Origin: Candidatus Levyibacteriota bacterium
Lineage (GTDB): Bacteria > Patescibacteriota > Microgenomatia > Levybacterales > UBA12049
Direction: 5' to 3'
Length of the DNA stretch: 64,000 nt
NCBI GenBank assembly: GCA_027459745.1
Contig: DAIDHL010000003.1
Span: 1,125 to 65,124 of the forward strand
Below are positions 2,877 through 44,011 of this stretch, in pieces; the stretch's first letter is position 1; the number at the start of each line of letters is the position of its first letter. The position numbers were made by a program, and so were the translations under genes. The notes under the pieces were generated by a model. That model had not been told where the DNA came from. It did no database searches and worked only from the letters and a program-made list of their open reading frames with translations.

Positions 2877-2924
2877 GCGCTCCCCTTCAATCGCCCTCTT
2901 TCCAATTGACTTCCAGGGGAGCGC
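2877..2924. other. GC-rich stem-loop (10-bp perfect stem GCGCTCCCCT/AGGGGAGCGC, 28-nt loop) in a divergent intergenic region
   Basis: Perfect inverted repeat read directly from the sequence; it is an isolated GC island in AT-rich DNA between the PIG-L and Fic genes. Confidence 0.4.
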
Positions 2925-29312: not shown

Positions 29313-29326
29313 AATTAATTTAGTTC

Positions 29327-29356
29327 TTGCATTTTCAAATAAAATACGACTATAAT
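29327..29356 (+). promoter_or_regulatory. Promoter TTGCAT-18-TATAAT driving the ilv leader (leaderless)
   Basis: TATAAT at 29351-56 lies 6 nt before the leader ATG at 29363. Confidence 0.45.
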
Positions 29357-29362
29357 AATCAC

Positions 29363-29410
29363 ATGATAAGAAATCAAAACGTTATTATTGCTCTCATTAT
29401 TACCCGTTAA
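29363..29410 (+). CDS. ilv leader peptide MIRNQNVIIALIITR (15 aa; Ile/Val/Leu-rich)
   Basis: The run of cognate codons is GTT ATT ATT GCT CTC ATT ATT, and the stop sits 31 nt before an intrinsic terminator. Confidence 0.55.
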   Translation: MIRNQNVIIALIITR

Positions 29411-29441
29411 CGCGGTGTATTTGTGTTGAGCAAAACAAGTA

Positions 29442-29463
29442 CCCCGCCAAGCGGGGTTTTTTT
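29442..29463 (+). terminator. Attenuator terminator CCCCGC-CAA-GCGGGG + T7
   Basis: Perfect 6-bp GC stem followed by seven T residues, 12 nt upstream of the ilvB ATG. Confidence 0.6.
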
Positions 29464-29474
29464 ATGACAAAAAT

Positions 29475-31166
29475 ATGAAAAGCAAAAATATAAGCGGAGC
29501 CAAAGCAGTAATGGAATCTTTAATAGCCGAGCAGGTTGATACGATCTTTGGTTATCCAGGGGGAGCGATCATGCCAATTTATGATGCTTTATATGATTAT
29601 AAAGATCAGATCAAACATATTTTGGTCAGACATGAACAAGGTGCTGCCCATGCAGCTGAAGGATATGCCAGAACTAGTGGCAAAACAGGCGTATGCTTTG
29701 CCACATCTGGACCTGGAGCAACTAATCTCATTACCGGAATTGCCGACGCCATGCTCGATTCAGTTCCACTCGTGTGTATAACTGGTCAAGTTGCATCTCA
29801 TCTGGTAGGCACTGATGCGTTTCAGGAAGTTGACGTCATTGGTATAACCTCTTCTATAACCAAATGGAACTACCAAATTACCAAAAGGGAAGAAATTGAC
29901 TCGATCATCCACCAGGCCTTTAACATAGCTCAAAGCGGAAGGCCTGGACCGGTAGTAATCGACGTTACTAAAGATGCGCAGCTTAATTTGTTCTCCTATC
30001 AGGAAAAAAGGACAAAAAAATTTAATCACTCTAAAAAACGATTAAATAAAAGCACTTTGGACTCAATTGCGAGATTGATAAATCAAGCAGAGCGACCATT
30101 AATTCTGGCGGGTCATGGAATTTTAATTGCTAACGCGGAAACTGAACTAAAAAAATTTGTCGAAAAAACAGATATCCCTGTTGCTTGTACTTTACATGGT
30201 TTAACATCTATACCAGTTGATCATCCGAATTATGTGGGTATGCTGGGTATGCACGGCAATTATGCGCCCAATGTCTTAACCAATCAGGCAGATGTGATTA
30301 TAGCTATTGGCATGCGCTTTGATGATAGAGTCACTAGTGATACCCAAACTTACGCCAAACAAGCCAAAATTATACATATAGACATCGATGCCAGCGAATT
30401 TGATAAAAATGTAAAAACTAAACTAACTCTCCAAGCAGATGCTAAAGAGGCTCTAACAAACTTATTTCCGCTGATAAATAAAGCACAACACAGTGCTTGG
30501 TTGGAAAAATTTCGTCAACTTTATGACCAAGAGCACCTACAAGTTATAACTTCTGATATCAATCGACCGGATACCCAAACTGTCTCCATGGCTGAGGTTA
30601 TTCACCAACTGTCAGAAATTACCCAAGGTAATGCTATTATTGTGGCTGACGTGGGGCAGCATCAAATGGTCACTGCTAGATATTTTAAGCATACATACCC
30701 TAATCACTACTTAACATCAGGCGGTGCTGGCACAATGGGTTTTGCTTTACCGGCAGCAATAGGCGCGAAAGTAGCCAATCCTGACAAAGAAGTTATTGCA
30801 GTCATCGGAGATGGAAGTTTTCAAATGACACTACAGGAATTGGGAACGATTATGCAAGAAAATATTCCGGTAAAAATTATTATTCTTAACAATCATTACC
30901 TGGGTATGGTACGTCAGTGGCAGGAGTTATTCTTCACCAAACGTTATTCTTTTGTAAATATTGACAGTCCCGATTTCGTTGCTCTGGCGAAATCATATGG
31001 CATCATGGGCAATACAGTAATACACAAGTCTGATCTGAAAAAGTCACTGCAACTTCTATGGAAAAGTAAACAAGCTTATTTGCTAGAGGTAAAAGTGGTC
31101 AAAGAAACCAATGTTTTTCCTATGATACCAACAGGAGCAGCTGTCGATGAAATGCGTCTTGAATAA
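29475..31166 (+). CDS. ilvB: Acetolactate synthase large subunit (TPP enzyme)
   Basis: 563 aa with a TPP-binding fold. GDGSFQMTLQELGT near the C-terminus matches the GDG(x)24-27N region. Confidence 0.85.
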   Translation: MKSKNISGAKAVMESLIAEQVDTIFGYPGGAIMPIYDALYDYKDQIKHILVRHEQGAAHAAEGYARTSGKTGVCFATSGPGATNLITGIADAMLDSVPLVCITGQVASHLVGTDAFQEVDVIGITSSITKWNYQITKREEIDSIIHQAFNIAQSGRPGPVVIDVTKDAQLNLFSYQEKRTKKFNHSKKRLNKSTLDSIARLINQAERPLILAGHGILIANAETELKKFVEKTDIPVACTLHGLTSIPVDHPNYVGMLGMHGNYAPNVLTNQADVIIAIGMRFDDRVTSDTQTYAKQAKIIHIDIDASEFDKNVKTKLTLQADAKEALTNLFPLINKAQHSAWLEKFRQLYDQEHLQVITSDINRPDTQTVSMAEVIHQLSEITQGNAIIVADVGQHQMVTARYFKHTYPNHYLTSGGAGTMGFALPAAIGAKVANPDKEVIAVIGDGSFQMTLQELGTIMQENIPVKIIILNNHYLGMVRQWQELFFTKRYSFVNIDSPDFVALAKSYGIMGNTVIHKSDLKKSLQLLWKSKQAYLLEVKVVKETNVFPMIPTGAAVDEMRLE

Positions 31167-31169
31167 TCT

Positions 31170-31409
31170 ATGGAGAAAAAAATATTTACTATTACTATTG
31201 TTTCCCAAAATACACCTGGCGTTTTATACCGCATAGCGGGTATGTTTTTACGACGAAAAATTAATATCGAGTCATTGCATGTTAAAGCAACCTCACTTAA
31301 AACAAAAGCTAAATTTATTATAAAAGTCACTTCAAAGTTGGATATCGTAAAGGTTATGTGCAAACAAATGGAGAAAATCGTGGAAGTAGAGGAGGTTGTT
31401 TTGAAATGA
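31170..31409 (+). CDS. ilvN: Acetolactate synthase small subunit, minimal ACT-domain form
   Basis: IVSQNTPGVLYRIAGMFLRRKINIESLHV is an ACT domain. The ATGA overlap with ilvA suggests translational coupling. Confidence 0.65.
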   Translation: MEKKIFTITIVSQNTPGVLYRIAGMFLRRKINIESLHVKATSLKTKAKFIIKVTSKLDIVKVMCKQMEKIVEVEEVVLK

Positions 31410-32650
31410 CAATAACTATTCAACAAATCGACCAGGCAGCGAAAACTTTGGAGAAAGTTGTACAGCAAACACCATTACTGTATTCGAAACGTTTGTCTAA
31501 GCAGTATAAAGCCAATATCTACCTCAAGCGTGAAGACTTACAGGAGGTGCGCTCGTTTAAAATTCGCGGTGCATATAATAAGATCGCATCATTAACTGCT
31601 GATGAGAAGAGACGAGGAGTTGTTTGTGCCAGTGCAGGAAATCATGCGCAAGGTGTGGCTCTGGGATGTTTTCTGCAGAAAATAAAAGGGGTTATTTTTA
31701 TGCCCCGCGTTACGCCAAATCAAAAAATTGAAAAAGTAAAACAATTTGGCCAGAAGTATGTGGAGGTCAAATTGGTAGGCCAGACTTTTGATGATGCAAG
31801 TGCAGAATCGAAAATTTACACCCAACAGAATAATATGGTATACGTTCATCCTTTCGATGATCCTCTGGTTATTGCCGGACAGGGAACTGTAGGTAAAGAA
31901 ATTTTCGAACAATCCGCAGGTAATGTAGACATAGTTATTTCTCCTATCGGTGGGGGTGGTTTGACCTCGGGGATTTCCAGCTATCTAAAACAGAAAAATT
32001 CAAAAATAACAATCATCGGAACCGAACCCCAGGGGGCAGCCGGCATGCACTCTTCAGTAAGTAATGGCTCAGTGACATCATTGGAAACAATTGATACTTT
32101 TGTGGATGGCGCAGCAGTAAAAACTGTCGGGAATATGACTTTTGCCATATGCCAAAAATACGTTTCTAAAATCGTGACTATTCCTGAAGGTATGGACTGT
32201 ACGACCATGATAGAACTTTATCAAAAAGACGGCATCATCGCTGAACCCGCAGGAGCGTTAAGTATCTCGACTTTAGAAAAAATTAAAGATGAAATAAGAG
32301 GAAAAACTGTGGTTTGTGTGCTAAGTGGGGGAAACAATGATTTACTGCGCTATCCAGAAATTTTAGAACGAAGTCTGATCTATCTAGGCAGGAAGCATTA
32401 TTTCATCATCGAATTTGCCCAAAAGCCAGGTCAGTTACGTCAATTTGTAGACCAGGCGCTTGGCCCTACTGATGATATTGTGAGGTTTGAATATATTAAA
32501 AAAACAAACAAGGAAAAAGGTCCAGCTCTAGTGGGAGTAGAGTTACAAAACGCTAAAGATTACAATTCATTACTCAAACGTATGGATAAGATTGGTTTAC
32601 AATATAGAATTTTACAACAGGATGATTTACTGTATCAATATTTGGTATAA
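31406..32650 (+). CDS. ilvA: Threonine ammonia-lyase (biosynthetic-type, one C-terminal regulatory domain)
   Basis: PLP motif FKIRGAYNK. GNHAQGVA. A Gly-rich GGGG loop. SD GGAGG 10 nt upstream of the ATG at 31406. Confidence 0.8.
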   Translation: MTITIQQIDQAAKTLEKVVQQTPLLYSKRLSKQYKANIYLKREDLQEVRSFKIRGAYNKIASLTADEKRRGVVCASAGNHAQGVALGCFLQKIKGVIFMPRVTPNQKIEKVKQFGQKYVEVKLVGQTFDDASAESKIYTQQNNMVYVHPFDDPLVIAGQGTVGKEIFEQSAGNVDIVISPIGGGGLTSGISSYLKQKNSKITIIGTEPQGAAGMHSSVSNGSVTSLETIDTFVDGAAVKTVGNMTFAICQKYVSKIVTIPEGMDCTTMIELYQKDGIIAEPAGALSISTLEKIKDEIRGKTVVCVLSGGNNDLLRYPEILERSLIYLGRKHYFIIEFAQKPGQLRQFVDQALGPTDDIVRFEYIKKTNKEKGPALVGVELQNAKDYNSLLKRMDKIGLQYRILQQDDLLYQYLV

Positions 32651-32657
32651 ATAAGAT

Positions 32658-33038
32658 ATGCAACAGATTCAAACCAAGAAAGCACCTCAAGCCATTGGCC
32701 CTTACTCACAAGCTATCATGTTGGAAAATGGAACCATATATTGCTCAGGACAAATAGGGTTGAACCCACAAACCGGAGAATTAGCTTCGGGAATAGAGGC
32801 ACAAACCAAACAAATTATGCAAAATATTCAAGCTCTACTGGAAGAGTTAGGTTATTCACTGGAAAATATCTGCAAAACCACTATCTTCTTGACTGATATG
32901 AACGACTTTACAAAAGTGAATGAAATTTATGGCTCATTTTTCTCTACACACAAACCTGCCCGGTCAACCGTAGGGGTGGCTCAGTTACCAAAACATGCAT
33001 TAGTAGAAATCGAAGTGATTGCCTATAATAAAATTTGA
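32658..33038 (+). CDS. ridA: RidA (YjgF/TdcF) enamine/imine deaminase
   Basis: 126 aa. It begins APQAIGPYSQA and ends ARSTVGVAQLPKHALVEIEVIA. Confidence 0.75.
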   Translation: MQQIQTKKAPQAIGPYSQAIMLENGTIYCSGQIGLNPQTGELASGIEAQTKQIMQNIQALLEELGYSLENICKTTIFLTDMNDFTKVNEIYGSFFSTHKPARSTVGVAQLPKHALVEIEVIAYNKI

Positions 33039-33064
33039 CAGTATGGTATATATTTTTGTAAAAT
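33035..33064 (+). promoter_or_regulatory. Promoter TTGACA-18-TAAAAT driving second leader peptide (leaderless)
   Basis: TTGACA at 33035-40. The -10 element ends 7 nt before the leader ATG at 33072. Confidence 0.4.
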
Positions 33065-33071
33065 ACAAAAT

Positions 33072-33122
33072 ATGATAAATAGAACTCAAGTTGTTGTTGC
33101 TCTCCTTCTTATCCGTTCTTAG
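33072..33122 (+). CDS. Branched-chain-type leader peptide MINRTQVVVALLLIRS (16 aa)
   Basis: Codon run GTT GTT GTT GCT CTC CTT CTT ATC. The stop TAG overlaps a GCGGG element. Confidence 0.5.
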   Translation: MINRTQVVVALLLIRS

Positions 33123-33160
33123 CGGGTTAGATTTGGTGCAATAAACACACAAAATCATAT

Positions 33161-33181
33161 CCCGCGAAAGCGGGTTTTTTT
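33161..33181 (+). terminator. Attenuator terminator CCCGC-GAAA-GCGGG + T7
   Basis: GNRA-type loop. An upstream GCGGG copy at 33122-26 could form an antiterminator with CCCGC. Confidence 0.55.
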
Positions 33182-33826
33182 ATGGTAAATTTAGCAGAGA
33201 TAGAACCATCAATAAGATCATTTTCTACACCTTCAATAACTGAAGGAGGATTAGTAGTACCTCAAGCATTACCTATTCATGCTAGAGATAGATCGTTCTC
33301 AGATTTACGCAGAGTCCGATTTATAGACGCTGTAGATGAGGATCGTGGATACCCAATCTTAAAATACCTACCTCATTCTTCACAGCCAGTAATGTTTGGG
33401 ATACCACGAGGAGATCAACCAATCTATGGTGGAATATTGCGTAACATGGATCGTCATAATGTTGCATTATATGCACTAAACAAACAAATGGGTGGAGCAG
33501 AAAGAATAAGAACATATCTACGAGGATATTATGAAGTTAATAGACAAAAAAATGACCATTCGCGTCACATGGTTATCTTTGAAATGCATCCAGATGAGAA
33601 AGGCAAATTTGATCCAAAGGACTTACAGCCGGAAGAGTGGGGTTTTTTTGACCCTAACCAATATTTAACACAACAAAATATTCAAAGTATTATGTCTGCT
33701 GCAGCTGCTGATACATTAAGAGTTCAATATAGTAGAATATCTACGACAGCGTTTGAACAAAAAGCTCTTCAAGCCGAAAGAGCAGCTCGCAAGAAACATT
33801 CTTATTATGATCATCAAAGTGACTAA
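33182..33826 (+). CDS. Hypothetical protein (start uncertain; the ATG immediately follows the terminator T-run)
   Basis: 214-aa ORF with no recognisable motif. Confidence 0.4.
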   Translation: MVNLAEIEPSIRSFSTPSITEGGLVVPQALPIHARDRSFSDLRRVRFIDAVDEDRGYPILKYLPHSSQPVMFGIPRGDQPIYGGILRNMDRHNVALYALNKQMGGAERIRTYLRGYYEVNRQKNDHSRHMVIFEMHPDEKGKFDPKDLQPEEWGFFDPNQYLTQQNIQSIMSAAAADTLRVQYSRISTTAFEQKALQAERAARKKHSYYDHQSD

Positions 33827-34075
33827 AGATCTGTGCAGGAATTTTAGTTTTGTATTATAATCTGCCCATGGAAAGAAGACCTTTCTCAGTTTATATACAC
33901 TCCACTCCCAAGACGGAAGTGTTGAGTAGCAGTTTGGAATATGCTGATAAGCAACCAGATCCTCATTCATCTATCAGTATTTTTGTCAAAGAAAGAAGAT
34001 TAAATAGCCAACCAAGAGGACTCCGAGCAGCTGTACTTAGAAGAAGATTAAAAACACAAAATAAAAAGTAGAGTG

Positions 34076-34149
34076 TGGGCCCTACAGGGCTCGAACCTGT
34101 GACCTTTACAATGTCAATGTAACGCTCTAGCCAACTGAGCTAAGAGCCC
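34076..34149 (-). tRNA. tRNA-Val (anticodon GAC)
   Basis: Acceptor GGGCTCT/AGGGCCC, D arm GCTC-AGTTGGCTA-GAGC, anticodon stem-loop TTACA-TTGACAT-TGTAA, T loop TTCGAGC. Confidence 0.8.
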
Positions 34150-34194
34150 AAACTGACTCCAATTATAGCATAAAATTTCTCACACTCAGTAGAA

Positions 34195-35400
34195 CTATTT
34201 ATTTACAAATAAAATAGCATTGGGAATATTGCGGCCAGGTCCTAATTTATAACCTCCATACCAAAGAGCAGTAGATCCACCTTCGTCTAAATTAAGTGCA
34301 TTATTCATACCCATCGCTTTCATTACATTCGCACTATCTTGCATCGTCGCGCCTAAGACATCGCCGATATAAATGGTACTACCAATATTTGCGATAAAAC
34401 CCCGTGTACCAACGCTATTATACTTTCCATCCCCGCTGCCTCCATAGACAATTTGATTATTTAGAACTAACAACGGCTGCATCGCCAAGACCATATCTGG
34501 ACTAGTATCACGACCCCATTGCTCAGAAGCGGATACAAAACGCACATTAGTTCCGGAAATAATTACAGCAGGGACTATGCTATATACATTATTAGCAGAG
34601 TTGAAATAAGTTTTATTTTTATTCATTAATAAAGTATCAAATGATCCTGTTTTACCTGCACAGCTGGGATAATCTGCTGGACAAAAAAATGTACCATTTA
34701 TGCCCGCCCATGCACCGTTACGCGAAACATAATCTGACAGAGGTAGTACAGGACAATTATTACCACAATCAGAGCCAGAAGCAGTATCGACAATTATGCG
34801 GGTCGAATTTAAATCAGCAGCAATAATATCGACTAAAAAAATTCCATTGCTAGTGCTAACATACTGCTGATTAAAACCATTCTTGGGAGGTATGTTTGAT
34901 GTGGTCGCATTGGCAGGTGCTAAACTACCTCCTGGTGTGCTCATTGCTGCAATCGTGTCTTGTGCTTGGGTAATTTGTGATTTTAAGACGCTTAAACTTG
35001 CCGATGCTGATGCGTAGTTCATTTCTCCCAAATCACTCACAGTCGTAACATACAGTGGAATCAATTTATCAATTTTTTGATTTTGATCCTGTAGATCCAG
35101 CATATCTTGATAAGCACTGATTGAAGATTTATAAGTTGATTGAATATTTTTTTCTAGATTCTCTAACGCTTGATTACGTTTATATTGATCCTGGTTTTTT
35201 AATGCTAAATAATTTTTATCAAGTATAGCTAAATTAATTGACAAAGCTGAAGTCTGTTGTTGTTGAGAAACTAAAGAATCATCAGTAAAAAAAATATAGA
35301 TCAAAAGAGCAATACATGATAATAACAGAATTACAATTATTATCCCTTCTTCGACCGGCAACCAAGTGATAAATTTTTTATAAATCCTTTTTATGTACAT
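34195..35400 (-). CDS. Phosphodiester glycosidase family protein (DUF2233/NAGPA-like), membrane-anchored with coiled coil
   Basis: C-terminal NALNLDEGGSTALWYGG resembles the NAGPA-domain signature. N-terminal TM and a Q-rich coiled coil. Confidence 0.5.
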   Translation of the reverse strand: MYIKRIYKKFITWLPVEEGIIIVILLLSCIALLIYIFFTDDSLVSQQQQTSALSINLAILDKNYLALKNQDQYKRNQALENLEKNIQSTYKSSISAYQDMLDLQDQNQKIDKLIPLYVTTVSDLGEMNYASASASLSVLKSQITQAQDTIAAMSTPGGSLAPANATTSNIPPKNGFNQQYVSTSNGIFLVDIIAADLNSTRIIVDTASGSDCGNNCPVLPLSDYVSRNGAWAGINGTFFCPADYPSCAGKTGSFDTLLMNKNKTYFNSANNVYSIVPAVIISGTNVRFVSASEQWGRDTSPDMVLAMQPLLVLNNQIVYGGSGDGKYNSVGTRGFIANIGSTIYIGDVLGATMQDSANVMKAMGMNNALNLDEGGSTALWYGGYKLGPGRNIPNAILFVNK

Positions 35401-35461
35401 AAAATAATGTTAGCATGAAGACTCTTGCAATTAAAAGCTTTATTATCTAAAATTTTATCTC

Positions 35462-35863
35462 ATGTCCAAAGCGTTTGTTGATAATCTAATCCACAATATG
35501 AAACTCGCCGGAGTTATAACCAAAGTCACACCTTGGTCAGTTGAGGGATTCGGAGATAAAGCTCTCAATGTCCGATATCTGGGAATTAAACTCCCCGAAG
35601 ACTGGCAGGAAATTTTTTCCGATAAAAATAATTTGTTATTAAAATTTGTGATTGATCGCTCAACTGCGGTGGTTGAATTTTATCTGGCCAACAAACCACC
35701 CTTTGTAAAAATAATTACACGTGATTTTAATGACGGCGATAAATGGGAGAATGTCTTGGGTGAAGTGAAGAATAGATTAAAACGTGACAAAGCAGATTTT
35801 CAAAATCACAATGAACAAGTAGGAAATATTTATAGCCGAATAAATGCTGCGCTCAAGAAGTAA
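35462..35863 (+). CDS. Hypothetical protein
   Basis: 133-aa ORF. Confidence 0.4.
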   Translation: MSKAFVDNLIHNMKLAGVITKVTPWSVEGFGDKALNVRYLGIKLPEDWQEIFSDKNNLLLKFVIDRSTAVVEFYLANKPPFVKIITRDFNDGDKWENVLGEVKNRLKRDKADFQNHNEQVGNIYSRINAALKK

Positions 35864-35888
35864 GAATTATATTTAGTTTTAAATAGAC

Positions 35889-36185
35889 TTAGTCACTATT
35901 TACCACACCTACGTAATCAATTTTTGGGAAGCGCATCCTAATTTCTTTCCAAAAATTTTCAGATAGACTCTGTGAGAATTTACCATATTTACCTGACTCA
36001 GTTTTGGAGCATAGCATATTTTCCCAGCGTTGAATGATACGCACGGCTTTTTGTCCAATTTGATTAAATTCTTCTTGAAATACCTGTGGTTCATCGACGT
36101 ATTTAGCGTGAATCAGCGAGAAGGATTCAAATAATTCCTTGTTCGCCTCAAGCATGTCCAAAACTTGTTGTTTGTACTTAACCAT
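35889..36185 (-). CDS. Hypothetical protein
   Basis: 98-aa ORF. Confidence 0.35.
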   Translation of the reverse strand: MVKYKQQVLDMLEANKELFESFSLIHAKYVDEPQVFQEEFNQIGQKAVRIIQRWENMLCSKTESGKYGKFSQSLSENFWKEIRMRFPKIDYVGVVNSD

Positions 36186-36249
36186 AAAGATCTATGCTAA
36201 TAAAATAAACACTTTTCGTCAAGATATATTTGGTGTTATACTATTTTCC

Positions 36250-36840
36250 ATGACTCACGAACAGGCATATATACTACTGACTAAATATTTAAAAAACAAG
36301 AATCTAATCAAGCATTGCCGATCTTGTGAAGTCGCCATGCAAGCTTTGTGCAAACACTTACACCCCGATGCAACAGAAGAAGAAATACAAACCTGGGGCA
36401 TCACTGGACTATTACATGATGTTGATTATGAGATAGCCCAAGAAAAAAATATGTTGGATAAACACGGCTTGTTAATTTTTGATAAAACCCTCATCGGTAT
36501 TGAAGAGACTACTTTTCCTGAGAGAATTAAACATGCTATTCAAGCCCACAATTATGAGCATACGCAAGTTATGCCAGCCAGTGATTTAGATTGGGGAATA
36601 GCCTGTATAGATCAGCTAACTGGCCTAATCATTGCTGCTGCTTTGGTACGACCTGATAAACAACTAAGTTCGGTAGACACAACAACCGTTTTAAAAAGAT
36701 TTAAAGAAAAAAGTTTTGCCAAAGGTGCGAGTAGAGAGTCTATCCAAAATTGTGAAGAAAAACTCGGCATTCCACTTGATCAGTTTATTACTATTACTCT
36801 GCAAGCCATGCAGGAAATCCACCAAGAATTAGGTTTATAA
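36250..36840 (+). CDS. HD-domain phosphohydrolase family protein
   Basis: H...HD pattern (CKHLH ... GLLHDVDYE). TGTTATACT extended -10 lies 7 nt before the ATG at 36250 (leaderless). Confidence 0.5.
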   Translation: MTHEQAYILLTKYLKNKNLIKHCRSCEVAMQALCKHLHPDATEEEIQTWGITGLLHDVDYEIAQEKNMLDKHGLLIFDKTLIGIEETTFPERIKHAIQAHNYEHTQVMPASDLDWGIACIDQLTGLIIAAALVRPDKQLSSVDTTTVLKRFKEKSFAKGASRESIQNCEEKLGIPLDQFITITLQAMQEIHQELGL

Positions 36841-36955
36841 GCTCCAAAGTTTAAATTATATATCTCAGAAAACTTGGAAAACTCAGTTAATCAGTCTGAT
36901 AACCTTACTGGGCTGATTCTCTGAGTGTCCTGAAAATTGTGATTAATTTGAGGAT

Positions 36956-37447
36956 CTATGGTCTTACAATGTGCCAGACGCCACCGACGCCATCACCATT
37001 TATATCACCAGGTTTTTTATCCTGAATATAGTAGTACAAAGGCATACCTTTCCAAGCAAATTGTTTGGAACCATCACTGCGTGTAATCACGGAGATGTTG
37101 GCAGGAAAAGTCTTCTGCGCGGTCGCGCCCGATGTATAAATCGGCCAGACAGCCAAACATTGTCCTGCACAATTACTTACACCATTATTATCCTTACTAT
37201 AGGTATAAAGTGTATTCCCAGCAAAATCAGTCAAATATTGTCCTTTGGTTTTGTCTGTTTTAATCAAATAAATGTTGTCCGAAGGAACCATGGCAGTAGT
37301 TGTTTTATTTGAAGTCACCGTAGTATTCATCATAACCGGAGTGGGCTGGGACATACCCAACATAGCTTTAAGCTGATGTCTCTCGAAATAACCACCAATT
37401 GCAGCTAATACAATTATTACTATTACTATCCACAACCATGTTTTCAT
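36956..37447 (-). CDS. Secreted lipoprotein-like protein with COG4315 (PF03640) repeats
   Basis: Two copies of the pattern Y..D..G.TLY.Y..D...S.C.G.C...WP and G.PLYYY..D..PGD..GDGV..VWH.V. Confidence 0.5.
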   Translation of the reverse strand: MKTWLWIVIVIIVLAAIGGYFERHQLKAMLGMSQPTPVMMNTTVTSNKTTTAMVPSDNIYLIKTDKTKGQYLTDFAGNTLYTYSKDNNGVSNCAGQCLAVWPIYTSGATAQKTFPANISVITRSDGSKQFAWKGMPLYYYIQDKKPGDINGDGVGGVWHIVRP

Positions 37448-37504
37448 ATACTAATGTGAGAATAATCACTTTTTAATTCGTTGTCAATATCTAAATAACA
37501 AATA

Positions 37505-38023
37505 CTAAAATTTCCTACTATCATAGGCCCAGTGCAATAGGGCTTGTCTTTGAACAGGACGGCACAAGAGATCCTCTGGACGGCAATTTTTATTTATTTG
37601 TGCAATATGTCGTCGCATATTCTTCCATCTTTTAACTTGCCTAAGATCTTCACTTGGGATACGTCTACCCATGTAATAGCGACAATACCACTGAAACCAA
37701 CCCCTAGGATCATCCCTATAAATCCATCCCTTATTTTGCCAAATCTTTAGTGGCTGACTGGCATTTACTTTAAAATAATTCAATTGTGCATCATGAAACT
37801 CGTGATTTAACTTAGCGTATTCAAACCAATCAGAAGGAAATTCTGTAAGACAATCTGTCATGTATTTACCACCAAAGACACCCATTCGTAGCATCTCTTT
37901 AGGAGTAAGATCAGGTTTAAATTCAGAAGCAAAGTTTTTACCAACTGGCTCAATCAGAAAGTAGGTATAGTTTTTCTGCATTAAGTCATTTACCACTACT
38001 TTTCTCATCGATTCATCACCCAC
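37505..38023 (-). CDS. Hypothetical protein
   Basis: 172-aa Trp/Arg-rich ORF (RGWFQWYCRYYMGRR). No family assigned. Confidence 0.4.
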   Translation of the reverse strand: MGDESMRKVVVNDLMQKNYTYFLIEPVGKNFASEFKPDLTPKEMLRMGVFGGKYMTDCLTEFPSDWFEYAKLNHEFHDAQLNYFKVNASQPLKIWQNKGWIYRDDPRGWFQWYCRYYMGRRIPSEDLRQVKRWKNMRRHIAQINKNCRPEDLLCRPVQRQALLHWAYDSRKF

Positions 38024-38499
38024 ACACTATAGTTTAAATAACCAGCAAACGTCACCCATAACAAGTACGGTATTAAGATATAACCCGCAGCTTTTGAAAT
38101 TCTAGCAAATATTAACATGCACGCCAAGATAGTCATCCATAAAACACCCATTTCCCATAAAGCAAAAAATGGCTGTTGCCAACCAAAAAAAATCACCGAC
38201 CAAAAGAAATTTAACACTAATTGCAGAACGAACATTTGTATACCCAGTAATTTGGTCACTGCTAACCTGCCCTGATTTTTTTTATTCCACACCAAAAATA
38301 GTGCAATTCCCATTAGAAAATATAACGTTGTCCACACGGGTCCAAATACCCACGCTGGGGGATTTAAACTGGCTTTATGTAATCCTGCATACCAAGTAGG
38401 GATAGCTGTAAGTGTAAACGGGATGCTTAACAATCCAACTGACTCACAAATAACAATAGCACCAAGTACTTTGCTTATAAACTTGAAATTTAACTTCAT
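38005..38499 (-). CDS. TspO/MBR (tryptophan-rich sensory protein) family
   Basis: NPPAWVFGPVWTTLYFLMGIALFLVW, with 5 TM segments. Confidence 0.7.
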   Translation of the reverse strand: MKLNFKFISKVLGAIVICESVGLLSIPFTLTAIPTWYAGLHKASLNPPAWVFGPVWTTLYFLMGIALFLVWNKKNQGRLAVTKLLGIQMFVLQLVLNFFWSVIFFGWQQPFFALWEMGVLWMTILACMLIFARISKAAGYILIPYLLWVTFAGYLNYSVWVMNR

Positions 38500-38582
38500 T
38501 ATTTTCAGTATGTATCAGTACATTAAGTATGTCAATAAATAATAAAACAGATTAAGAGAGCGACTTTTTAAGTTTACAAAAC

Positions 38583-38650
38583 AATATCTGGCAACATTTG
38601 GCAATATCTGGTAATATTCGGTAATATCTGGCAATCTTTCGACAATTTCA
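38583..38650. repeat. Tandem array of ~6 degenerate 10-11-bp units (consensus ATATCTGGCA) in the promoter region of the second Fic gene
   Basis: The units read aatatctggca / acatttggca / atatctggta / atattcggta / atatctggca / atctttcgaca, i.e. helical phasing at about 10.5 bp. Confidence 0.5.
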
Positions 38651-38672
38651 GGACTATAGTTTAAATAATAAT

Positions 38673-39671
38673 ATGGATATACCTCCACTATTTCAAATCA
38701 CCAACAACATGTTAACCACTATTGCCCAAATAGAAGGATTGCGATCCTCATTGGAGATTACTCGAGTTCCTGATCTTATATTATCCCATTTACGTTCTGA
38801 AAGTTTGCTCAAAAGTTCTGTTTTTTCAGCTCAGATCGAAGGCAATACATTATCCGTTCAAGATATTCAAAATAGAGAATCAGAAAAAAATGAAACTGAT
38901 TACCAGCATCAAGAAGTTGAAAATATTATTAATGCTTTATCACTAATGCGAGAAAATGAACTTCCGCAAATTATTGATTTGGACTTCATATTAACATTAC
39001 ATAAACAAGTCATGCATAACTTGGTACATTCATCTCAAGCCGGAAAATTAAGACGGGAACCTAGTGCTATTTTTGATCAATCAGGCAATGTCGTTTATAT
39101 GACACCTCCTCCTTCACAATTAGAACCGCTGCTTTCAGATCTACTGCGTTTGATTAATCAATCTGATAATATCTTTCCTCTGATTAAAATTGCGCTTGTG
39201 CATCTCTGTTTTGAAAAAATTCATCCTTTCTTAGATGGCAATGGTAGGGTAGGTAGATTGATTATTCAAGCTTTGCTCGCCAAACATAATTATCATTTTC
39301 AGTGGTTACTTTCCATTGAAGAAGGCTTACAAGAGAAAAAACAAACCTATTATGTTTTGCTTGATAGAAATGATGCCAGTGAATTTATCGAATTCTTTTT
39401 GTCTGTGATTTTAGATGAAGCGGAAAAGTTAAAAGCTAATTTAAGTAATATTAACAATCCACAACCGCAAGATTTTCTTTTACCTCGGAGGAAAGAGATT
39501 TTAAATATTATTACAGAGCAAAATATAGTGTCTTTTGATCAATTACACCGTAGATTTTTAAAAATTCCTGATCGTACTCTGCGTTATGATCTACAACAGT
39601 TAGAAAAGGCTGGCTTTATACAAAAAGTCGGCACGACCAGAGGAGCAATGTATCAAGTTATCAAACATTAA
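38673..39671 (+). CDS. Fic family protein (class II) with C-terminal wHTH
   Basis: HPFLDGNGRVGRLI Fic motif. The N-terminal inhibitory motif is SAQIEGN. Confidence 0.8.
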   Translation: MDIPPLFQITNNMLTTIAQIEGLRSSLEITRVPDLILSHLRSESLLKSSVFSAQIEGNTLSVQDIQNRESEKNETDYQHQEVENIINALSLMRENELPQIIDLDFILTLHKQVMHNLVHSSQAGKLRREPSAIFDQSGNVVYMTPPPSQLEPLLSDLLRLINQSDNIFPLIKIALVHLCFEKIHPFLDGNGRVGRLIIQALLAKHNYHFQWLLSIEEGLQEKKQTYYVLLDRNDASEFIEFFLSVILDEAEKLKANLSNINNPQPQDFLLPRRKEILNIITEQNIVSFDQLHRRFLKIPDRTLRYDLQQLEKAGFIQKVGTTRGAMYQVIKH

Positions 39672-39740
39672 GTATTATTTGACAAAGCTATTATGTTTTG
39701 TTAGCATAAACCAACTATGTGCAAACTACTTAATATTTTT

Positions 39741-39767
39741 ATGACCGGTACAACTACCTCTGTTTAG
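39741..39767 (+). CDS. Thr-rich leader peptide MTGTTTSV (8 aa)
   Basis: ATG ACC GGT ACA ACT ACC TCT GTT TAG. The stop overlaps GCGGGG (39767-72). A TTGACA hexamer lies at 39678. Confidence 0.45.
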   Translation: MTGTTTSV

Positions 39768-39794
39768 CGGGGTTGTATTGATGTGCAATAGATA

Positions 39795-39816
39795 CCCCGC
39801 AAAGCGGGGTTTTTTT
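39795..39816 (+). terminator. Attenuator terminator CCCCGC-AAA-GCGGGG + T7
   Basis: Perfect 6-bp stem and a T7 run. The upstream GCGGGG copy supports an antiterminator alternative. Confidence 0.55.
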
Positions 39817-39847
39817 ATGGTTTGATACCTAAAGAAAGGAGGAAAAA

Positions 39848-40087
39848 ATGGCAAAAGAAATAAAACTTGATGATTTTCATTTTGTCTCACCAGATGTGAG
39901 AGGACAGATTGTACCTGATTTTTATGAAAGACTAATTATCAGACAACCTGATCCACGTTTCAATCTTGATAGCCAAAATTATTTTGGAGCTCAAAGAAAA
40001 GATAAATTACCCAAAGCTTGTTTGGCAAAAGATAGGGCAAGAATCGATTCTATAAGAGCTCAACTAAAAATAGTTGCTAGACAATAA
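39848..40087 (+). CDS. Hypothetical small protein (strong SD)
   Basis: AAAGGAGGAAAAAATG. 79 aa. Confidence 0.45.
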   Translation: MAKEIKLDDFHFVSPDVRGQIVPDFYERLIIRQPDPRFNLDSQNYFGAQRKDKLPKACLAKDRARIDSIRAQLKIVARQ

Positions 40088-40166
40088 TGATGAAAGCAGT
40101 AGAATGGTGGACGCTAGCTACCATTGTCTGCTTTATAAAAGCTCGAGTTTTTGCTATATTACAAAC

Positions 40167-41924
40167 ATGAACACATCAGATAATTTACAAAATCTACGTC
40201 ACACCAGTGCACATCTATTAGCTGCTGCTGTGCAAAAGCTTTATCCCGATGCTAAAAGAGCGATTGGTCCAGCCATTGAATCTGGTTTTTATTACGATTT
40301 TGAGTTTAATAAACCACTTACGGAAGAAGATTTACCCAAAATTGAGGAAGAGATGAAAACGATTCTCAAGACTTGGACAAAAACTGACCATCGAGAAGTA
40401 ACAAACAATGAAGCAATGAAACAATTTAACAATGAGCCTTATAAACTTGAACTAATTGAGGAATTTGCTAAAGAAGGAAAAACATTAACGATCTATAAAA
40501 ATGGCGAGTACGAAGACTTATGCAAAGGCGGCCATGCAGAGAATCCTGCCAAAGAAATTGGCGCTTTCAAACTTTTATCTCTGGCCGGCGCCTATTGGCG
40601 AGGCAGTGAAAAAAATAAAATGTTGACCAGAATTTATGGTACAGCTTTTTCTACTCAAGCTCAACTTGATGAATATTTATTGATGCAAGAAGAAGCCAAA
40701 AAAAGAGATCACAAAAAACTTGCTTCACAACTTGAACTATTCTTCTTTGATGATACTGCTCCTGGTATGGCTTATTGGTTACCCAAAGGGCTAACTCTAT
40801 ATAACACCTTGTATTCTTTTGCTCGAGAAATGTATAGAAAATATGGCTATCAGGAAGTTGCAACTCCTCAGCTCAATAAAAAAGAATTGTATGAAACTTC
40901 TGGTCATTGGGCACATTATCGAGATGATATGTTTTTATCACCCATGAGTTATTTGAGAGATGAATCAGACAATCCCATGGAGGGCAGCGAAGTATTTGGT
41001 GTAAAACCTATGAACTGTCCCAATCACATGCGTATATTTGCACATAAAACACGTTCATATCATGATTTGCCTTTGCGCTTAGCAGAAACGACGAGCCTAC
41101 ATAGATTTGAACTCTCTGGCACATTAAATGGTTTGTTTAGAATCAGACAATTTCGCCAGGATGATGCCCACATCTTTATTTATCCTGAGCAGGCTAAACA
41201 AGAATTTGAGAGTTTACTAAAAATGATTGAAGAAATGTATTCGCCATTTAATTTAACTTACCGCTTCAGATTTGGTACCAGACCAGACAGTCATTTGGGA
41301 GAAGCTTCTGACTGGGATATTGCAGAGGATGTATTACGAAAAGTTCTGAACGCGTCAGGTAAAGAATATTTTGAATTAGCGGGAGAAGGAGCATTTTATG
41401 GCCCTAAAGTCGATATTTTAATGAAAGATTCACTAGGTCGTGAATGGCAGACAGGCACAATTCAGTTGGATATTCAACAACCCAAACGCTTTGGGCTGCA
41501 CTATATAGACAGTGAAGGAAGTGAAAAAATGCCATTTGTCTTTCACAGAGCTATAGTAGGATCATTTGAACGCTTCTTAGGTATCTTAATTGAACACTTC
41601 GCCGGAGTGTTTCCATTATGGATGGCACCTATCCAAGTTGCGCTTCTTCCGATAGCAGATAGGCACGTCGAATACGCGCAGAAAGTCAAGAAGCAGCTTG
41701 AGCAACATGATATCCGAGTAGAAGTATCCGATAATGCTGATACCCTCCAGGCCAAGATACGCAACGCTACTTTACAAAAAGTACCACTTATGGGTATAAT
41801 AGGGGATAAGGAAATAGCTGCAGAAGCTATTTCTGTCCGTTCAAGAGCCGGAGAAAACTTGGGTAGCCAAGCAATCAACGACTTTTTGCAGAAAGTTAAA
41901 CAAGACATTGATAAAAAGATTTAA
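40167..41924 (+). CDS. thrS: Threonine--tRNA ligase lacking the N1 (TGS) domain
   Basis: The editing-domain HxxxH motif (HTSAHLLAAA) is near the N-terminus. Class II core and anticodon-binding domain follow. Start chosen at MNTSDN. Confidence 0.85.
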   Translation: MNTSDNLQNLRHTSAHLLAAAVQKLYPDAKRAIGPAIESGFYYDFEFNKPLTEEDLPKIEEEMKTILKTWTKTDHREVTNNEAMKQFNNEPYKLELIEEFAKEGKTLTIYKNGEYEDLCKGGHAENPAKEIGAFKLLSLAGAYWRGSEKNKMLTRIYGTAFSTQAQLDEYLLMQEEAKKRDHKKLASQLELFFFDDTAPGMAYWLPKGLTLYNTLYSFAREMYRKYGYQEVATPQLNKKELYETSGHWAHYRDDMFLSPMSYLRDESDNPMEGSEVFGVKPMNCPNHMRIFAHKTRSYHDLPLRLAETTSLHRFELSGTLNGLFRIRQFRQDDAHIFIYPEQAKQEFESLLKMIEEMYSPFNLTYRFRFGTRPDSHLGEASDWDIAEDVLRKVLNASGKEYFELAGEGAFYGPKVDILMKDSLGREWQTGTIQLDIQQPKRFGLHYIDSEGSEKMPFVFHRAIVGSFERFLGILIEHFAGVFPLWMAPIQVALLPIADRHVEYAQKVKKQLEQHDIRVEVSDNADTLQAKIRNATLQKVPLMGIIGDKEIAAEAISVRSRAGENLGSQAINDFLQKVKQDIDKKI

Positions 41925-42498
41925 TCGAAATCAAGATCAAAGAAAGCAATACCATATCAATGACCGCATTTATTCGGTAACATTGAGGGTACTTGATGCC
42001 GAAGGTAAACAGATCGGTATCATGGGGAAACATGAAGCACTGAGACTGGCAGCAGAACAAAATGTTGATGTAGTCGAAATTGTACCTAATGCAAATCCGC
42101 CCGTAGCCAAACTGATTGATTTCCAGAAATTTTTGTATCAAGAACAGAAAAAGAAGCAAGAGGAAAAACGCAAAGCTAAGACAACTGAGACAAAAGAAGT
42201 AAGATTGGGACCTTTTATGTCTGATAATGACTTACAAGTCATGATGAGACGAGCAAGAGAGTTCCTAAATAACGGTGATAAAGTAAGAATGGTTTTGAGA
42301 TTTCGCGGCCGTCAGATTACTCATCCAGAATTTGGATACAAGATGATGAGTAAAATGATTGAAGGCTTAGATGACATTTCAAAAGTAGACCGTGAACCTC
42401 ACTTAGAGGGTCACCAAATGGTTGGATTATTATCTGTAGAAAGGAATAAAAAAAATGAAAAAGAAGAAAATAAGCAAAGCAGCGGCCAGACGGTTTAA
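41908..42498 (+). CDS. infC: Translation initiation factor IF-3 (non-ATG start likely)
   Basis: YSVTLRVLDAEGKQIGIM...EIVPNANPPVAKLIDFQKF. The frame begins with TTG and overlaps the thrS end. Confidence 0.8.
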   Translation: MIKRFNRNQDQRKQYHINDRIYSVTLRVLDAEGKQIGIMGKHEALRLAAEQNVDVVEIVPNANPPVAKLIDFQKFLYQEQKKKQEEKRKAKTTETKEVRLGPFMSDNDLQVMMRRAREFLNNGDKVRMVLRFRGRQITHPEFGYKMMSKMIEGLDDISKVDREPHLEGHQMVGLLSVERNKKNEKEENKQSSGQTV

Positions 42499-42652
42499 AA
42501 TTACCAAAACAGGTAAGGTCATGTTTGCCCACCAATATGGCAGTCACAAAAAGTTAACTAAATCTAAACGTAGAATTCGTCGCCAAAAAGAACCAGCCCA
42601 GTTGCACGGAAGATTTGCATTTAAGATTAAAAAGATTTTAGGAGCAGCATAA
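42455..42652 (+). CDS. rpmI: 50S ribosomal protein L35
   Basis: MKKKKISKAAARRFKITKTGKV. 65 aa. Confidence 0.75.
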   Translation: MKKKKISKAAARRFKITKTGKVMFAHQYGSHKKLTKSKRRIRRQKEPAQLHGRFAFKIKKILGAA

Positions 42653-42653
42653 T

Positions 42654-43004
42654 ATGGCAAGAGTAAAACGCGGGATGGTCTCCCGAAGAAAACATAATAA
42701 ATTACTTAAATTAGCTAAAGGCTATACGGGTACTAAGGGTCGTTTGGTCAGAACAGCAAAGCAAGCTGTTTTGCATGCAGGAGCTTATGCCTTCCATGGC
42801 CGCAAACTTCGCAAAAGAGATTTCCGTTCATTATGGATCACTCGCATCAGTGGTGCAGTCAAACAACAAGGTCTTTCTTATAGTGTTTTTATGAATAAGT
42901 TACAAAAGTCTAATATCGTTCTTGACCGCAAGATTTTGAGTGATTTGGTCGTCAATGATCCAGCTGCCTTCAAACATATAGTTGACACAGTTAAAGCAAA
43001 ATAA
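42654..43004 (+). CDS. rplT: 50S ribosomal protein L20
   Basis: MARVKRGMVSRRKHNKLLKLAKGYTG... is a canonical L20. Confidence 0.9.
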   Translation: MARVKRGMVSRRKHNKLLKLAKGYTGTKGRLVRTAKQAVLHAGAYAFHGRKLRKRDFRSLWITRISGAVKQQGLSYSVFMNKLQKSNIVLDRKILSDLVVNDPAAFKHIVDTVKAK

Positions 43005-43010
43005 TATTAT
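42982..43010 (+). promoter_or_regulatory. Promoter TTGACA-17-TATTAT inside the rplT 3' end, driving a leaderless pheM-like leader
   Basis: The -10 ends at 43010; the leader ATG is at 43017. Confidence 0.45.
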
Positions 43011-43016
43011 AAATGC

Positions 43017-43088
43017 ATGAACTCACGTATTAACAATTCTTTTTGGTTTTACTTTACTTCCCCAACCGGGAGGCTTGTTAGTGCTTAA
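43017..43088 (+). CDS. Aromatic/Phe-rich leader peptide MNSRINNSFWFYFTSPTGRLVSA (pheM-like)
   Basis: FWFYF codon run. It contains GGGAGG (43068-73), which matches the terminator 3' half. Its position after rplT is the same as E. coli pheM. Confidence 0.5.
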   Translation: MNSRINNSFWFYFTSPTGRLVSA

Positions 43089-43117
43089 GCACTAACATTG
43101 GAGTAATCCAACTTAGA

Positions 43118-43140
43118 CCTCCCGAAAGGGAGGTTTTTTT
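43118..43140 (+). terminator. Attenuator terminator CCTCCC-GAAA-GGGAGG + T7
   Basis: Perfect 6-bp stem, GNRA loop and seven T residues. Confidence 0.55.
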
Positions 43141-43191
43141 GTACTTATTTTTCAAAACATATTAACAAATATGAGAAAGGAGGTGAAATAC

Positions 43192-43473
43192 ATGTCAGTT
43201 GAAATAAACTCGAGTAAAGGATTAGATGTTGTACGCAAAATTGCAGCAAAAAGAAGGAGTGGCTTTATTATTAGTAATGATTCACTATCTCAAGCAGAAG
43301 TTACATTAGGCCAACGACATTCAAATGCAAACAGAAGAACTCGTTATGATGCTAGTTTACTACAACAAGCATCTGAACACGTTCCAGCTAGTTTGATGAC
43401 CGATGTTGTTAACAATGGATTAGCCATTTTGGTTGATTATACTGGAAATCTCTCGTTAAGAAGAGAACAGTAG
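43192..43473 (+). CDS. Hypothetical small protein (very strong SD AAAGGAGGTGA)
   Basis: 93-aa ORF. Confidence 0.45.
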   Translation: MSVEINSSKGLDVVRKIAAKRRSGFIISNDSLSQAEVTLGQRHSNANRRTRYDASLLQQASEHVPASLMTDVVNNGLAILVDYTGNLSLRREQ

Positions 43474-43506
43474 AGAGAAATAAATAAGAAAGGAGGTGAG
43501 AATATT

Positions 43507-43923: not shown

Positions 43924-44011
43924 AACTGTTATACTGGGGTTAATTAATAGCGCACCCCAGCCTAAACAGTGAAAAATGTGTTAAATTATGTTACTCTTTT
44001 AGCTGAAACGT

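Follow-up and report, generated by a model that had tools for sequence, protein, structure and literature searches.

The window analysed here is a stretch of 64,000 nucleotides (nt) from a Candidatus Levyibacteriota bacterium, with a G+C content of ∼36%. Between positions 29,327 and 43,140 it accommodates four loci at which a short open reading frame (ORF) lies between a promoter and a compact hairpin, and which are considered below as candidate ribosome-mediated (leader-peptide) attenuators. Locus 1 precedes the operon ilvB-ilvN-ilvA-ridA, locus 2 is located between ridA and a gene of no recognized family, locus 3 is found upstream of thrS, and locus 4 begins within the end of rplT, ahead of an aminotransferase gene and pheST. 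All four were re-derived by script after direct reading of the sequence and comprise the following features.

29327–29356, forward strand: promoter of attenuator 1, TTGCAT (29327–32), 18-nt spacer and TATAAT (29351–56), 6 nt from the ATG at 29363.
29363–29410, forward strand: leader ORF 1, MIRNQNVIIALIITR, with the Ile/Val/Leu run VIIALII; the stop TAA (29408) is followed by CGCGGTG.
29388–29433, forward strand: 1:2 (anti-antiterminator) hairpin of attenuator 1, GCUCUC...ACCCGU pairing with GCGG.GUA...GAGCAA.
29412–29447, forward strand: antiterminator (2:3) of attenuator 1, GCGG.GUAUUUGU pairing with ACAAGUAC.CCGC, −15.3 kcal/mol.
29441–29463, forward strand: terminator of attenuator 1, ACCCCGC-CAA-GCGGGGU (core 29442–56) and T7 (29457–63), −12.1 kcal/mol.
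33035–33064, forward strand: promoter of attenuator 2, TTGACA (33035–40), 18-nt spacer and TAAAAT (33059–64), 7 nt from the ATG at 33072; the −35 box overlaps the stop codon of ridA.
33072–33122, forward strand: leader ORF 2, MINRTQVVVALLLIRS, with a Val/Leu run; the stop TAG overlaps GCGGG.
33122–33165, forward strand: antiterminator of attenuator 2, region 2 (GCGGG...) pairing with the CCCGC arm, −15.7 kcal/mol.
33161–33181, forward strand: terminator of attenuator 2, CCCGC-GAAA-GCGGG (33161–74) and T7 (33175–81), −9.7 kcal/mol.
39679–39707, forward strand: promoter of attenuator 3, TTGACA (39679–84), 17-nt spacer and TG-n-TAGCAT (39702–07), 9 nt from the ATG at 39717.
39717–39767, forward strand: leader ORF 3, MCKLLNIFMTGTTTSV, with four Thr within codons 10–14; the stop TAG overlaps GCGGGG.
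39767–39800, forward strand: antiterminator of attenuator 3, GCGGGGUU... pairing with ...ACCCCGC, −18.2 kcal/mol.
39794–39816, forward strand: terminator of attenuator 3, ACCCCGC-AAA-GCGGGGU (core 39795–809) and T7 (39810–16), −12.1 kcal/mol.
42982–43010, forward strand: promoter of attenuator 4, TTGACA (42982–87), 17-nt spacer and TATTAT (43005–10), 6 nt from the ATG at 43017, within the end of rplT.
43017–43088, forward strand: leader ORF 4, MNSRINNSFWFYFTSPTGRLVSA, with the aromatic run FWFYF.
43057–43073, forward strand: 1:2 hairpin of attenuator 4, CUUCCCC-AACC-GGGAGG.
43067–43124, forward strand: antiterminator of attenuator 4, GGGAGGC pairing with G.CCUCCC and enclosing hairpins at 43076–43097 and 43098–43110, −29.8 kcal/mol.
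43115–43140, forward strand: terminator of attenuator 4, AGACCUCCC-GAAA-GGGAGGUUU (core CCTCCC-GAAA-GGGAGG, 43118–33) and T7 (43134–40), −14.8 kcal/mol.

The arrangement is the same throughout. A sigma-70-type promoter (−35 box TTGCAT or TTGACA, spacer of 17–18 nt, −10 box TAnnnT) adjoins the AUG of an ORF of 15–23 codons, which is devoid of a Shine-Dalgarno sequence and carries a run of codons for one amino-acid class; a G/C-rich hairpin and exactly seven T residues follow. This four-part build, described in an initial annotation of the stretch, was borne out nearly to the base, with three adjustments of detail. The distance from the −10 box to the ATG is 6–7 nt, as had been stated, at loci 1, 2 and 4, but 9 nt at locus 3; the copy of the terminator stem overlaps or follows the leader stop at loci 1–3, but at locus 4 the GGGAGG copy (43068–73) is contained in the ORF, 12 nt ahead of the stop; and all four sites have the T7 tract, but the stem of locus 4 is not pure G/C. 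When both strands of the 64 kb were scanned for terminators under strict settings (a perfect stem of ≥5 pairs, ≥4 of them G/C, with ≥T6 behind it), these four sites and no others were returned, so that every canonical intrinsic terminator in the window follows a promoter-proximal mini-ORF. A looser, energy-based scan of the window disclosed no further terminator as compact and strong.

Folding, for which mutually exclusive antiterminator and terminator structures had been anticipated, recovered both at all four loci with codon-exact spacing. In free folding, loci 1, 2 and 4 adopt the terminator together with a 1:2 hairpin that joins the end of the leader ORF to sequence past the stop; at locus 1 this hairpin is the minimum-free-energy structure of the ribosome-free RNA, at −17.5 kcal/mol, before region 4 is transcribed. 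The conserved Ala-Leu pair (GCU CUC) in the middle of both ilv leader peptides is accounted for by its pairing with the downstream GAGC in the 1:2 hairpin. A ribosome was mimicked by masking the RNA from its 5′ end to 12 nt beyond the A-site codon, with the terminator 3′ arm (region 4) removed. Under these conditions the antiterminator stays intact at all four loci for every A-site position through the last codon of the run and collapses one to two codons beyond it. The antiterminator and terminator energies are −15.3/−12.1, −15.7/−9.7, −18.2/−12.1 and −29.8/−14.8 kcal/mol for loci 1–4, and with the ribosome at the stop codon the antiterminator is reduced to residual values of −1.6, −2.4, −0.6 and −3.9 kcal/mol. 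At locus 1 the boundary codon is the last Ile, at locus 2 the last Leu, at locus 3 the fourth Thr and at locus 4 the last Phe, and the same boundary recurs in 13 of 14 leaders from relatives. Dinucleotide shuffling of the spacer equalled the observed antiterminator in only 0, 1, 2 and 0 of 1000 trials at loci 1–4.

Transcription starts, leader translation and amino-acid-dependent read-through at the four loci can be envisaged as follows. The dedicated sigma-70-type promoter would set the transcription start no more than ∼3 nt from the leader AUG, so that translation of the ORF would take place on a leaderless mRNA, with the ribosome moving close behind RNA polymerase. A shortage of the cognate charged tRNA would stall the ribosome in the run (Ile/Val/Leu, Val/Leu, Thr-rich or Phe/Trp/Tyr, in the order of the loci), its footprint hiding region 1 and leaving region 2, the G-rich copy at or after the stop, free to pair with the terminator 5′ arm (region 3); no terminator would then form and the polymerase would read into the downstream genes. 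When the amino acid is plentiful, the ribosome would advance one to two codons or reach the stop and cover region 2, upon which the 3:4 G/C hairpin with its U7 tract would form and end transcription. In the two ilv-type leaders an untranslated transcript would fold into the 1:2 hairpin and terminate as well, so that an ilv-type element could also end read-through from the upstream operon.

The leaderless translation of the four leaders is predicted from promoter geometry, and it is made plausible by at least 12 long ORFs in the window, thrS included, that likewise start 5–8 nt after a good −10 box (3107, 8142, 16391, 20884, 23095, 25004, 40167 and 51253 on the forward strand; 2769, 11377, 35400 and 63656 on the reverse strand). 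Judged from sequence, leaderless mRNAs would seem to be frequent in this genome. Several ORFs that start just after a −10 box also carry a perfect TTGACA at 17 nt. As a separate observation, ilvB, orf214 (the gene behind attenuator 2) and the aminotransferase gene lack both a Shine-Dalgarno sequence and an adjacent promoter, and in some instances the start codon of the regulated gene follows the terminator U tract immediately (UUUUUUUAUG), again without a Shine-Dalgarno sequence, as in orf214 (33175–33184) and in ilvB of two relatives (L083, 210–219; L084, 262–270).

The genes located behind the four elements, and the region preceding thrS, are the following.

29475–33038, forward strand: operon after attenuator 1, consisting of ilvB (29475–31166), ilvN (31170–31409), ilvA (from its ATG, 31406–32650) and ridA (32658–33038), identified by NCBIfam matches.
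33182–33826, forward strand: orf214, after attenuator 2, with its ATG directly behind the terminator T7.
39848–40087, forward strand: orf79 (79 amino acids), directly after attenuator 3, an orphan with a strong Shine-Dalgarno sequence.
40098–40166, forward strand: a hairpin, then UUUAUAAAA, then the thrS promoter with extended −10 box TGcTATATT (40152–60), 6 nt from the thrS ATG at 40167.
43192–45160, forward strand: genes after attenuator 4, consisting of orf93 (43192–43473), orf138 (43507–43923) and the aminotransferase gene (44012–45160).

The run VIIALII of leader 1 agrees with the ilvBN-ilvA-ridA pathway encoded downstream, as had been proposed for this locus. IlvB has only three close homologues (78, 77 and 68% identity), and all three of their contigs (L082, L083 and L084; labels L001 and L082–L097 denote the contigs of relatives used for comparison) contain the ilvBN-ilvA-ridA operon behind a counterpart of leader 1. 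These counterparts, MLRNQNIIVALIITR, MLCKQTIIALIITR and MHLTISQSILVLIILR, always precede ilvB, are 6–7 nt from a −10 box (6–12 nt among the leaders of relatives overall) and are followed by a terminator with a T tract; their branched-chain amino-acid run is preserved through conservative substitutions and in-frame indels. Leader 2 recurs after ridA in L082 and L083 (MTNLNQVLVALLLIRF and MMTEYKVIVALLLIRS), and a Leu-run version with GGGAGG/CCUCCC stems is present in L084. The recurrence of the ilv leaders in L082, L083 and L084 with their codon class kept is what the initial annotation had called for as a check. The more distant contig L097 shares the tig-DUF5660-ilvB context but has the operon ilvBN-ilvC-leuA-ilvD, with MNRLLSLTNVVVLLIEG before ilvB and MKVTCFQTDLLLALN (Leu, DLLLALN) before leuA; a metagenome-assembled genome of Daviesbacteria displays MLRKSLILLAVLISQV, a hairpin and T8 before ilvE-ilvBN-ilvC. 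At this tig-DUF5660 locus the operon of the window (29475–33038) is without ilvC, ilvD and leuA, and that of L097 (4001–9689) contains all three. DUF5660 is represented by a gene in the window, and DUF5659 and DUF5665 by genes in relatives. The named homologues of ThrS are assigned to Saccharimonadales (67% identity) and Patescibacteria (66%), apart from one discordant 'Acidoferrales' name (68%); taken with the DUF genes, these matches would place the genome in Patescibacteria, most probably in Saccharimonadia.

The aromatic leader is the most widespread of the four. It was traced in 11 further contigs, namely L001 (MNSRIQNVFWFYFYFPTREAK), L086 (MALRTNNYFWFYFTSQKGSSLVA), L085 in two copies (MFSRRFSFFFFTFA and MKQANLYYTFYFTPSVGGSSVV) and eight metagenome contigs, another result of the search for the same leaders in relatives. 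The motif (Y)FWFYF(T/Y)(S/F) is kept in L001, L086 and L088–L095, the eight metagenome leaders having been retrieved by an exact pattern fixing FWFYFTS. A promoter-proximal in-frame ATG is present in all 11 contigs, and each of the eight from metagenomes has the promoter, the internal hairpins and the terminator. The terminator arms vary (CCUCCC/GGGAGG, CCCCGC/GCGGGG, GCCCC/GGGGC or CCUCC/GGAGG) and region 2 changes to match; the hairpins inside the antiterminator retain their structure, with sequences unrelated among relatives. Since the terminator and region 2 columns of the MAFFT alignment were offset by 1 nt, the aromatic leaders were folded one by one, and the antiterminator was lost right after the last Phe in all 11 alignable cases.

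The neighbouring genes fit the aromatic run as well. In L001, L088 and L093 the leader stands directly before the gene for 3-deoxy-D-arabinoheptulosonate 7-phosphate (DAHP) synthase, followed in L001 by genes for chorismate mutase, prephenate dehydrogenase/dehydratase and an aminotransferase and by pheST. The window has orf93 and orf138 in place of the biosynthetic genes and retains the aminotransferase gene, whose product is 81% identical to that of the last gene of the L001 aromatic cluster and orthologous to it. FWFYF agrees with the aminotransferase here and with DAHP synthase, chorismate mutase and prephenate dehydrogenase/dehydratase in relatives. A homologue of orf93 is located behind the same aromatic leader in L094. 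The suggestion that leader 4 acts on pheST at a distance holds only indirectly: the nearest cognate gene is the aminotransferase gene, and pheS has a TATAAT box of its own 9 nt upstream of the ATG.

Taken as a whole, the evidence from folding, spacing, shuffle controls and conservation in relatives lends strong support to the core attenuator reading. What the computations established is how the sequences are built, which alternative structures they can form, the codon-exact spacing, the conservation with co-variation among relatives, and which cognate genes lie downstream. Loci 1, 2 and 4 are very probably ribosome-mediated attenuators of the classical trp/ilv/phe type, and the same assignment is the more probable one for locus 3, to be made with moderate confidence. 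Several points weigh against this interpretation. The masking assumed a ribosome footprint of 12 nt. In the thr and phe leaders the antiterminator is itself the thermodynamic optimum of the ribosome-free RNA before region 4 is made, so that their default state rests on folding kinetics. The FWFYFTS sequence in the eight metagenome leaders carries no information on conservation, as it was fixed by the retrieval pattern. Attenuator 3 is known in two genomes only, with the run TGSTS and a degenerate terminator in L001, and its immediate target is the orphan orf79. Since the targets of attenuators 2 and 3 are of unknown function, cognate regulation by these two elements cannot be argued.

Two other explanations would apply to all four elements. 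Each hairpin-T7 element is situated directly behind a same-strand gene or operon (tig/DUF5660, ilvBNA-ridA, a Fic gene and thrS-infC-rpmI-rplT) and might merely be its terminator, the adjacent promoters being unrelated and the ORFs due to chance; the untranslated ilv-type leaders, which fold into the 1:2 hairpin and the terminator, would indeed stop upstream read-through too. A promoter is always found upstream of the terminator, however, and its transcripts would be pointless without regulation. In addition, the short ORFs recur across genomes, with indels that keep the frame and runs that keep the codon class, the antiterminator exceeds shuffle expectation by far and is lost with codon precision at the end of the run, and the downstream genes agree with the codon class, so that this explanation is highly improbable. 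Slightly less probable still is the idea that the ORFs encode small hydrophobic peptides acting in trans, toxin-like or signalling, the RNA structures serving mRNA stability. The ilv-type peptides are hydrophobic, and a role in trans is reported for the Sinorhizobium leader peptide peTrpL; yet the peptides measure only 14–25 amino acids, their N-terminal halves are essentially unconstrained between relatives, and it is the codon class and the RNA pairing partners that are conserved. A function in trans is compatible with attenuation, but would leave the geometry of terminator and antiterminator unexplained.

Within the attenuator reading, the target of locus 3 calls for separate discussion. 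The Thr leader that the initial annotation had placed before thrS is a well-formed attenuator; its direct action on thrS was not sustained, as orf79, a hairpin and a dedicated thrS promoter intervene and four relatives have thrS without the leader. No Thr leader was found before thrS in L085, L086, L087 and L094, whose ThrS proteins are ∼68–71% identical, and a comparable thrS promoter with no leader is present in L085, L086 and L094. The only relative with a Thr-type leader is L001 (MSKLHIIVMTGSTSV), in which the run reads TGSTS, the terminator is degenerate and mismatched, and the counterpart of orf79 is broken, with 50 amino acids. Among 5.8 billion proteins, orf79 has no homologue beyond itself. 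A scan of genome contigs based on universally conserved ThrS peptides gave matches in all phyla, the best at 58% identity, and no useful relatives.

These observations give a roughly even chance that attenuator 3 is a duplicated ilv-type attenuator now placed on the lineage-specific orf79, with thrS expressed from an extended −10 promoter of its own and starting in leaderless fashion, and with a Thr/Ser-rich run that is perhaps weakly specific or decaying. The marginal similarity of leader 3 to ilv leader 2 outside the terminator (z=3.2), the covarying hairpin and UUUAUAAAA that separate orf79 from the thrS promoter, and the state of the element in L001 all point in this direction. Against it stands the integrity of attenuator 3 in the window, where the terminator is perfect and four Thr fall within five consecutive codons at which a stall preserves the antiterminator. 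Moreover, the element precedes thrS by 350 nt on the same strand, the poor U tract of the intervening hairpin makes read-through into thrS possible, and for Streptomyces a thrL-thrS pair with a leaderless leader has been proposed (PMC8079986). The case for attenuator 3 as a Thr sensor is weak, and it is doubtful that locus 3 is a Thr-specific regulator of thrS.

The long hairpin between orf79 and the thrS promoter (40098–40133) has a counterpart in L001 (∼1728–1770), with which it covaries (AAUGGU/ACCAUU versus GAUAGC/GCUAU); it may serve as an operator or, weakly, as the terminator of orf79. In Escherichia coli the thrS operator is a mimic of the tRNA-Thr anticodon arm. A mimicry of this kind was rejected for the hairpin before thrS, as its loop, ACGCUAG, has no NGU anticodon-like triplet in register.

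The idea that one reusable module had spread to all four loci by duplication is sustained for the two ilv-type elements, is marginal for leaders 2 and 3, and fails for the aromatic leader, a separate lineage that shows no homology to the other three leaders outside the terminator. Leaders 1 and 2 resemble each other outside the terminator with z=9.3 (0 of 500 shuffles) and are clear paralogues, the runs of which differ by first-position changes from ATT to GTT or CTT. The gene behind leader 2 had been described as unknown and proved to be so: orf214 belongs to no Pfam or NCBIfam family (a faint match to Pfam FGase has E=0.04), has one homologue only among 1.84 billion representative proteins searched with HMMER, gave no match in a metagenome scan, and has an AlphaFold (AF2) model that is unusable, with a predicted local distance difference test score of 35.

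Directly downstream of the attenuators the genes are, for the most part, small ORFs specific to a lineage and mutually unrelated by BLASTP (window 43192–43923, 39848–40087 and 33182–33826; L085 3068–4677; L086 8997–9215; L084 4053–4226; L001 5775–5969). Most of them are preceded by a very strong ribosome-binding site, AAAGGAGGTGA, and share a loose N-terminal resemblance (M-x-x-E-I-K/N), orf214 being the exception with no Shine-Dalgarno sequence. The strong AAGGAGGTGA site was rejected as a hallmark unique to attenuator-controlled ORFs, as it is also present at the genes at 19155 and 9692. It is conceivable, if rather improbable, that in these host-dependent, ultra-small bacteria the attenuators, besides tuning the biosynthetic genes that are left, place lineage-specific small proteins (orf214, orf79, orf93, orf138 and their unrelated counterparts in relatives) under starvation control, coupling the sensing of a scarce amino acid to a further response, perhaps a host-directed one, and that the cassette is portable, being duplicated and re-targeted by first-position codon changes such as those distinguishing leaders 1 and 2 (ATT to GTT/CTT).

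Other features of the region complete the picture. The window has lost the genes for DAHP synthase, chorismate mutase and prephenate dehydrogenase/dehydratase that follow the aromatic leader in L001. A hairpin, CTGGGGTTAATTAATAGCGCACCCCAG, with no T tract is located at 43934–43962, after the small ORFs that the aromatic leader precedes; L086 (9228–9257), with a ThrS of only 70% identity, has the same first 17 nt. Elements of ∼117 nt reminiscent of miniature inverted-repeat transposable elements occupy the intergenic regions on both sides of pheS (45167–45283 and 46378–46494), with terminal inverted repeats TTGTCATYCCGA and TCGGRATGACAA, and similar ones are found in L084 (∼4240–4325) and L097 (∼3900–3990). 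A LOOT RNA (Rfam RF03000), at 78.7 bits and above its gathering score, is harboured by L082, the contig of the closest relative (2760–2878, reverse strand), amid genes of phage type such as terminase and resolvase; the window showed no counterpart.

A full-text literature search on Saccharibacteria, Patescibacteria and the candidate phyla radiation found no description of leader-peptide attenuation in these groups. If confirmed, the elements would imply that reduced and largely uncultured bacteria use tight transcription-translation coupling and canonical intrinsic termination for regulation, and that some lineages retain regulated genes for branched-chain and aromatic amino acids. The latter would be worthy of note if, as is generally held, the group depends largely on a host for amino acids. 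The leaders would furthermore provide sequence-defined sensors for Ile/Val/Leu and Phe/Tyr/Trp, and would flag genes of no assigned function as regulated by amino-acid starvation, offering a functional handle on them.

The elements possess the constituents of a ribosome-mediated attenuator, namely a promoter-proximal short ORF, an intrinsic terminator and a mutually exclusive antiterminator with the right spacing; a codon run matching the regulated pathway is found in leaders 1 and 4. They have in common with the enterobacterial attenuators (trpL, ilvL/ivbL, thrL, pheL-pheA and pheM-pheST) the short ORF with a cognate run, the 1:2, 2:3 and 3:4 hairpins and a terminator before the structural genes. 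In E. coli the gene order is thrS-infC-rpmI-rplT-pheM-pheST, and the aromatic leader of the window, after rplT and ahead of pheST, takes the place of pheM. Unlike the enterobacterial leaders, those of the window have no Shine-Dalgarno sequence, their promoter adjoins the AUG, and the whole elements are shorter, at 100–124 nt. In contrast with the pheA and pheST leaders, the aromatic run mixes Phe, Trp and Tyr, and the apparent targets of the leader in relatives are DAHP synthase and the shared part of aromatic biosynthesis, not pheA or pheST alone.

No Rfam family reached its gathering score in the window. The aromatic leaders match the full Phe_leader model (RF01859), with which they share the CUUCCCC/GGGAGG and CCUCCC/GGGAGG stems, and score 31.3 bits in the window (43028–43142), 37.1 in L001 and 33.7 in L085, below the gathering score of 55: they resemble Phe_leader and would work like it, but fail its membership score. 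Thr_leader, Leu_leader, His_leader and Trp_leader likewise remained below gathering score in the window, the only sub-threshold match among them being to Trp_leader (33089–33183, 20.1 bits versus 41, E=3.9). T-box riboswitches, such as those of Bacillus thrS, pheST and ilv-leu, similarly bring about amino-acid-specific antitermination through competing structures at genes for aminoacyl-tRNA synthetases and biosynthesis; unlike the elements of the window, they lack a leader ORF, uncharged tRNA being sensed directly. No T-box reached gathering score in the window, and none was detected at E≤10 within 29300–43200.

The closest parallels in initiation are actinobacterial. Leaderless leader peptides have been proposed before ilvBHC, leuA, trpE, leuS, trpS, alaS and thrS in Streptomyces lividans (PMC8079986), and a leaderless ilvBNC leader transcript has been discussed in Corynebacterium glutamicum (PMC11857589). 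Relative to Actinobacteria, leaderless leader peptides are therefore not new, thrL-thrS being among the S. lividans cases (PMC8079986). The actinobacterial leaders (ilvL, leuL, trpL, thrL-thrS and alaL of S. lividans; ilvBNC of C. glutamicum) resemble those of the window in their leaderless character and in targeting both biosynthetic and aminoacyl-tRNA synthetase genes, with peptides of 12–29 amino acids (PMC8079986, PMC11857589). They belong to another phylum, whereas the leaders described here come from a genome of 36% G+C and are predicted to be leaderless from promoter geometry. Several of the Streptomyces cases have no U tract (PMC8079986), in contrast with the G/C hairpin and U7 at all four loci here. 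The elements of the window are instances, in Patescibacteria, of a long-known type of regulator: the mechanism is textbook, and the advance is one of taxonomic and regulatory scope.

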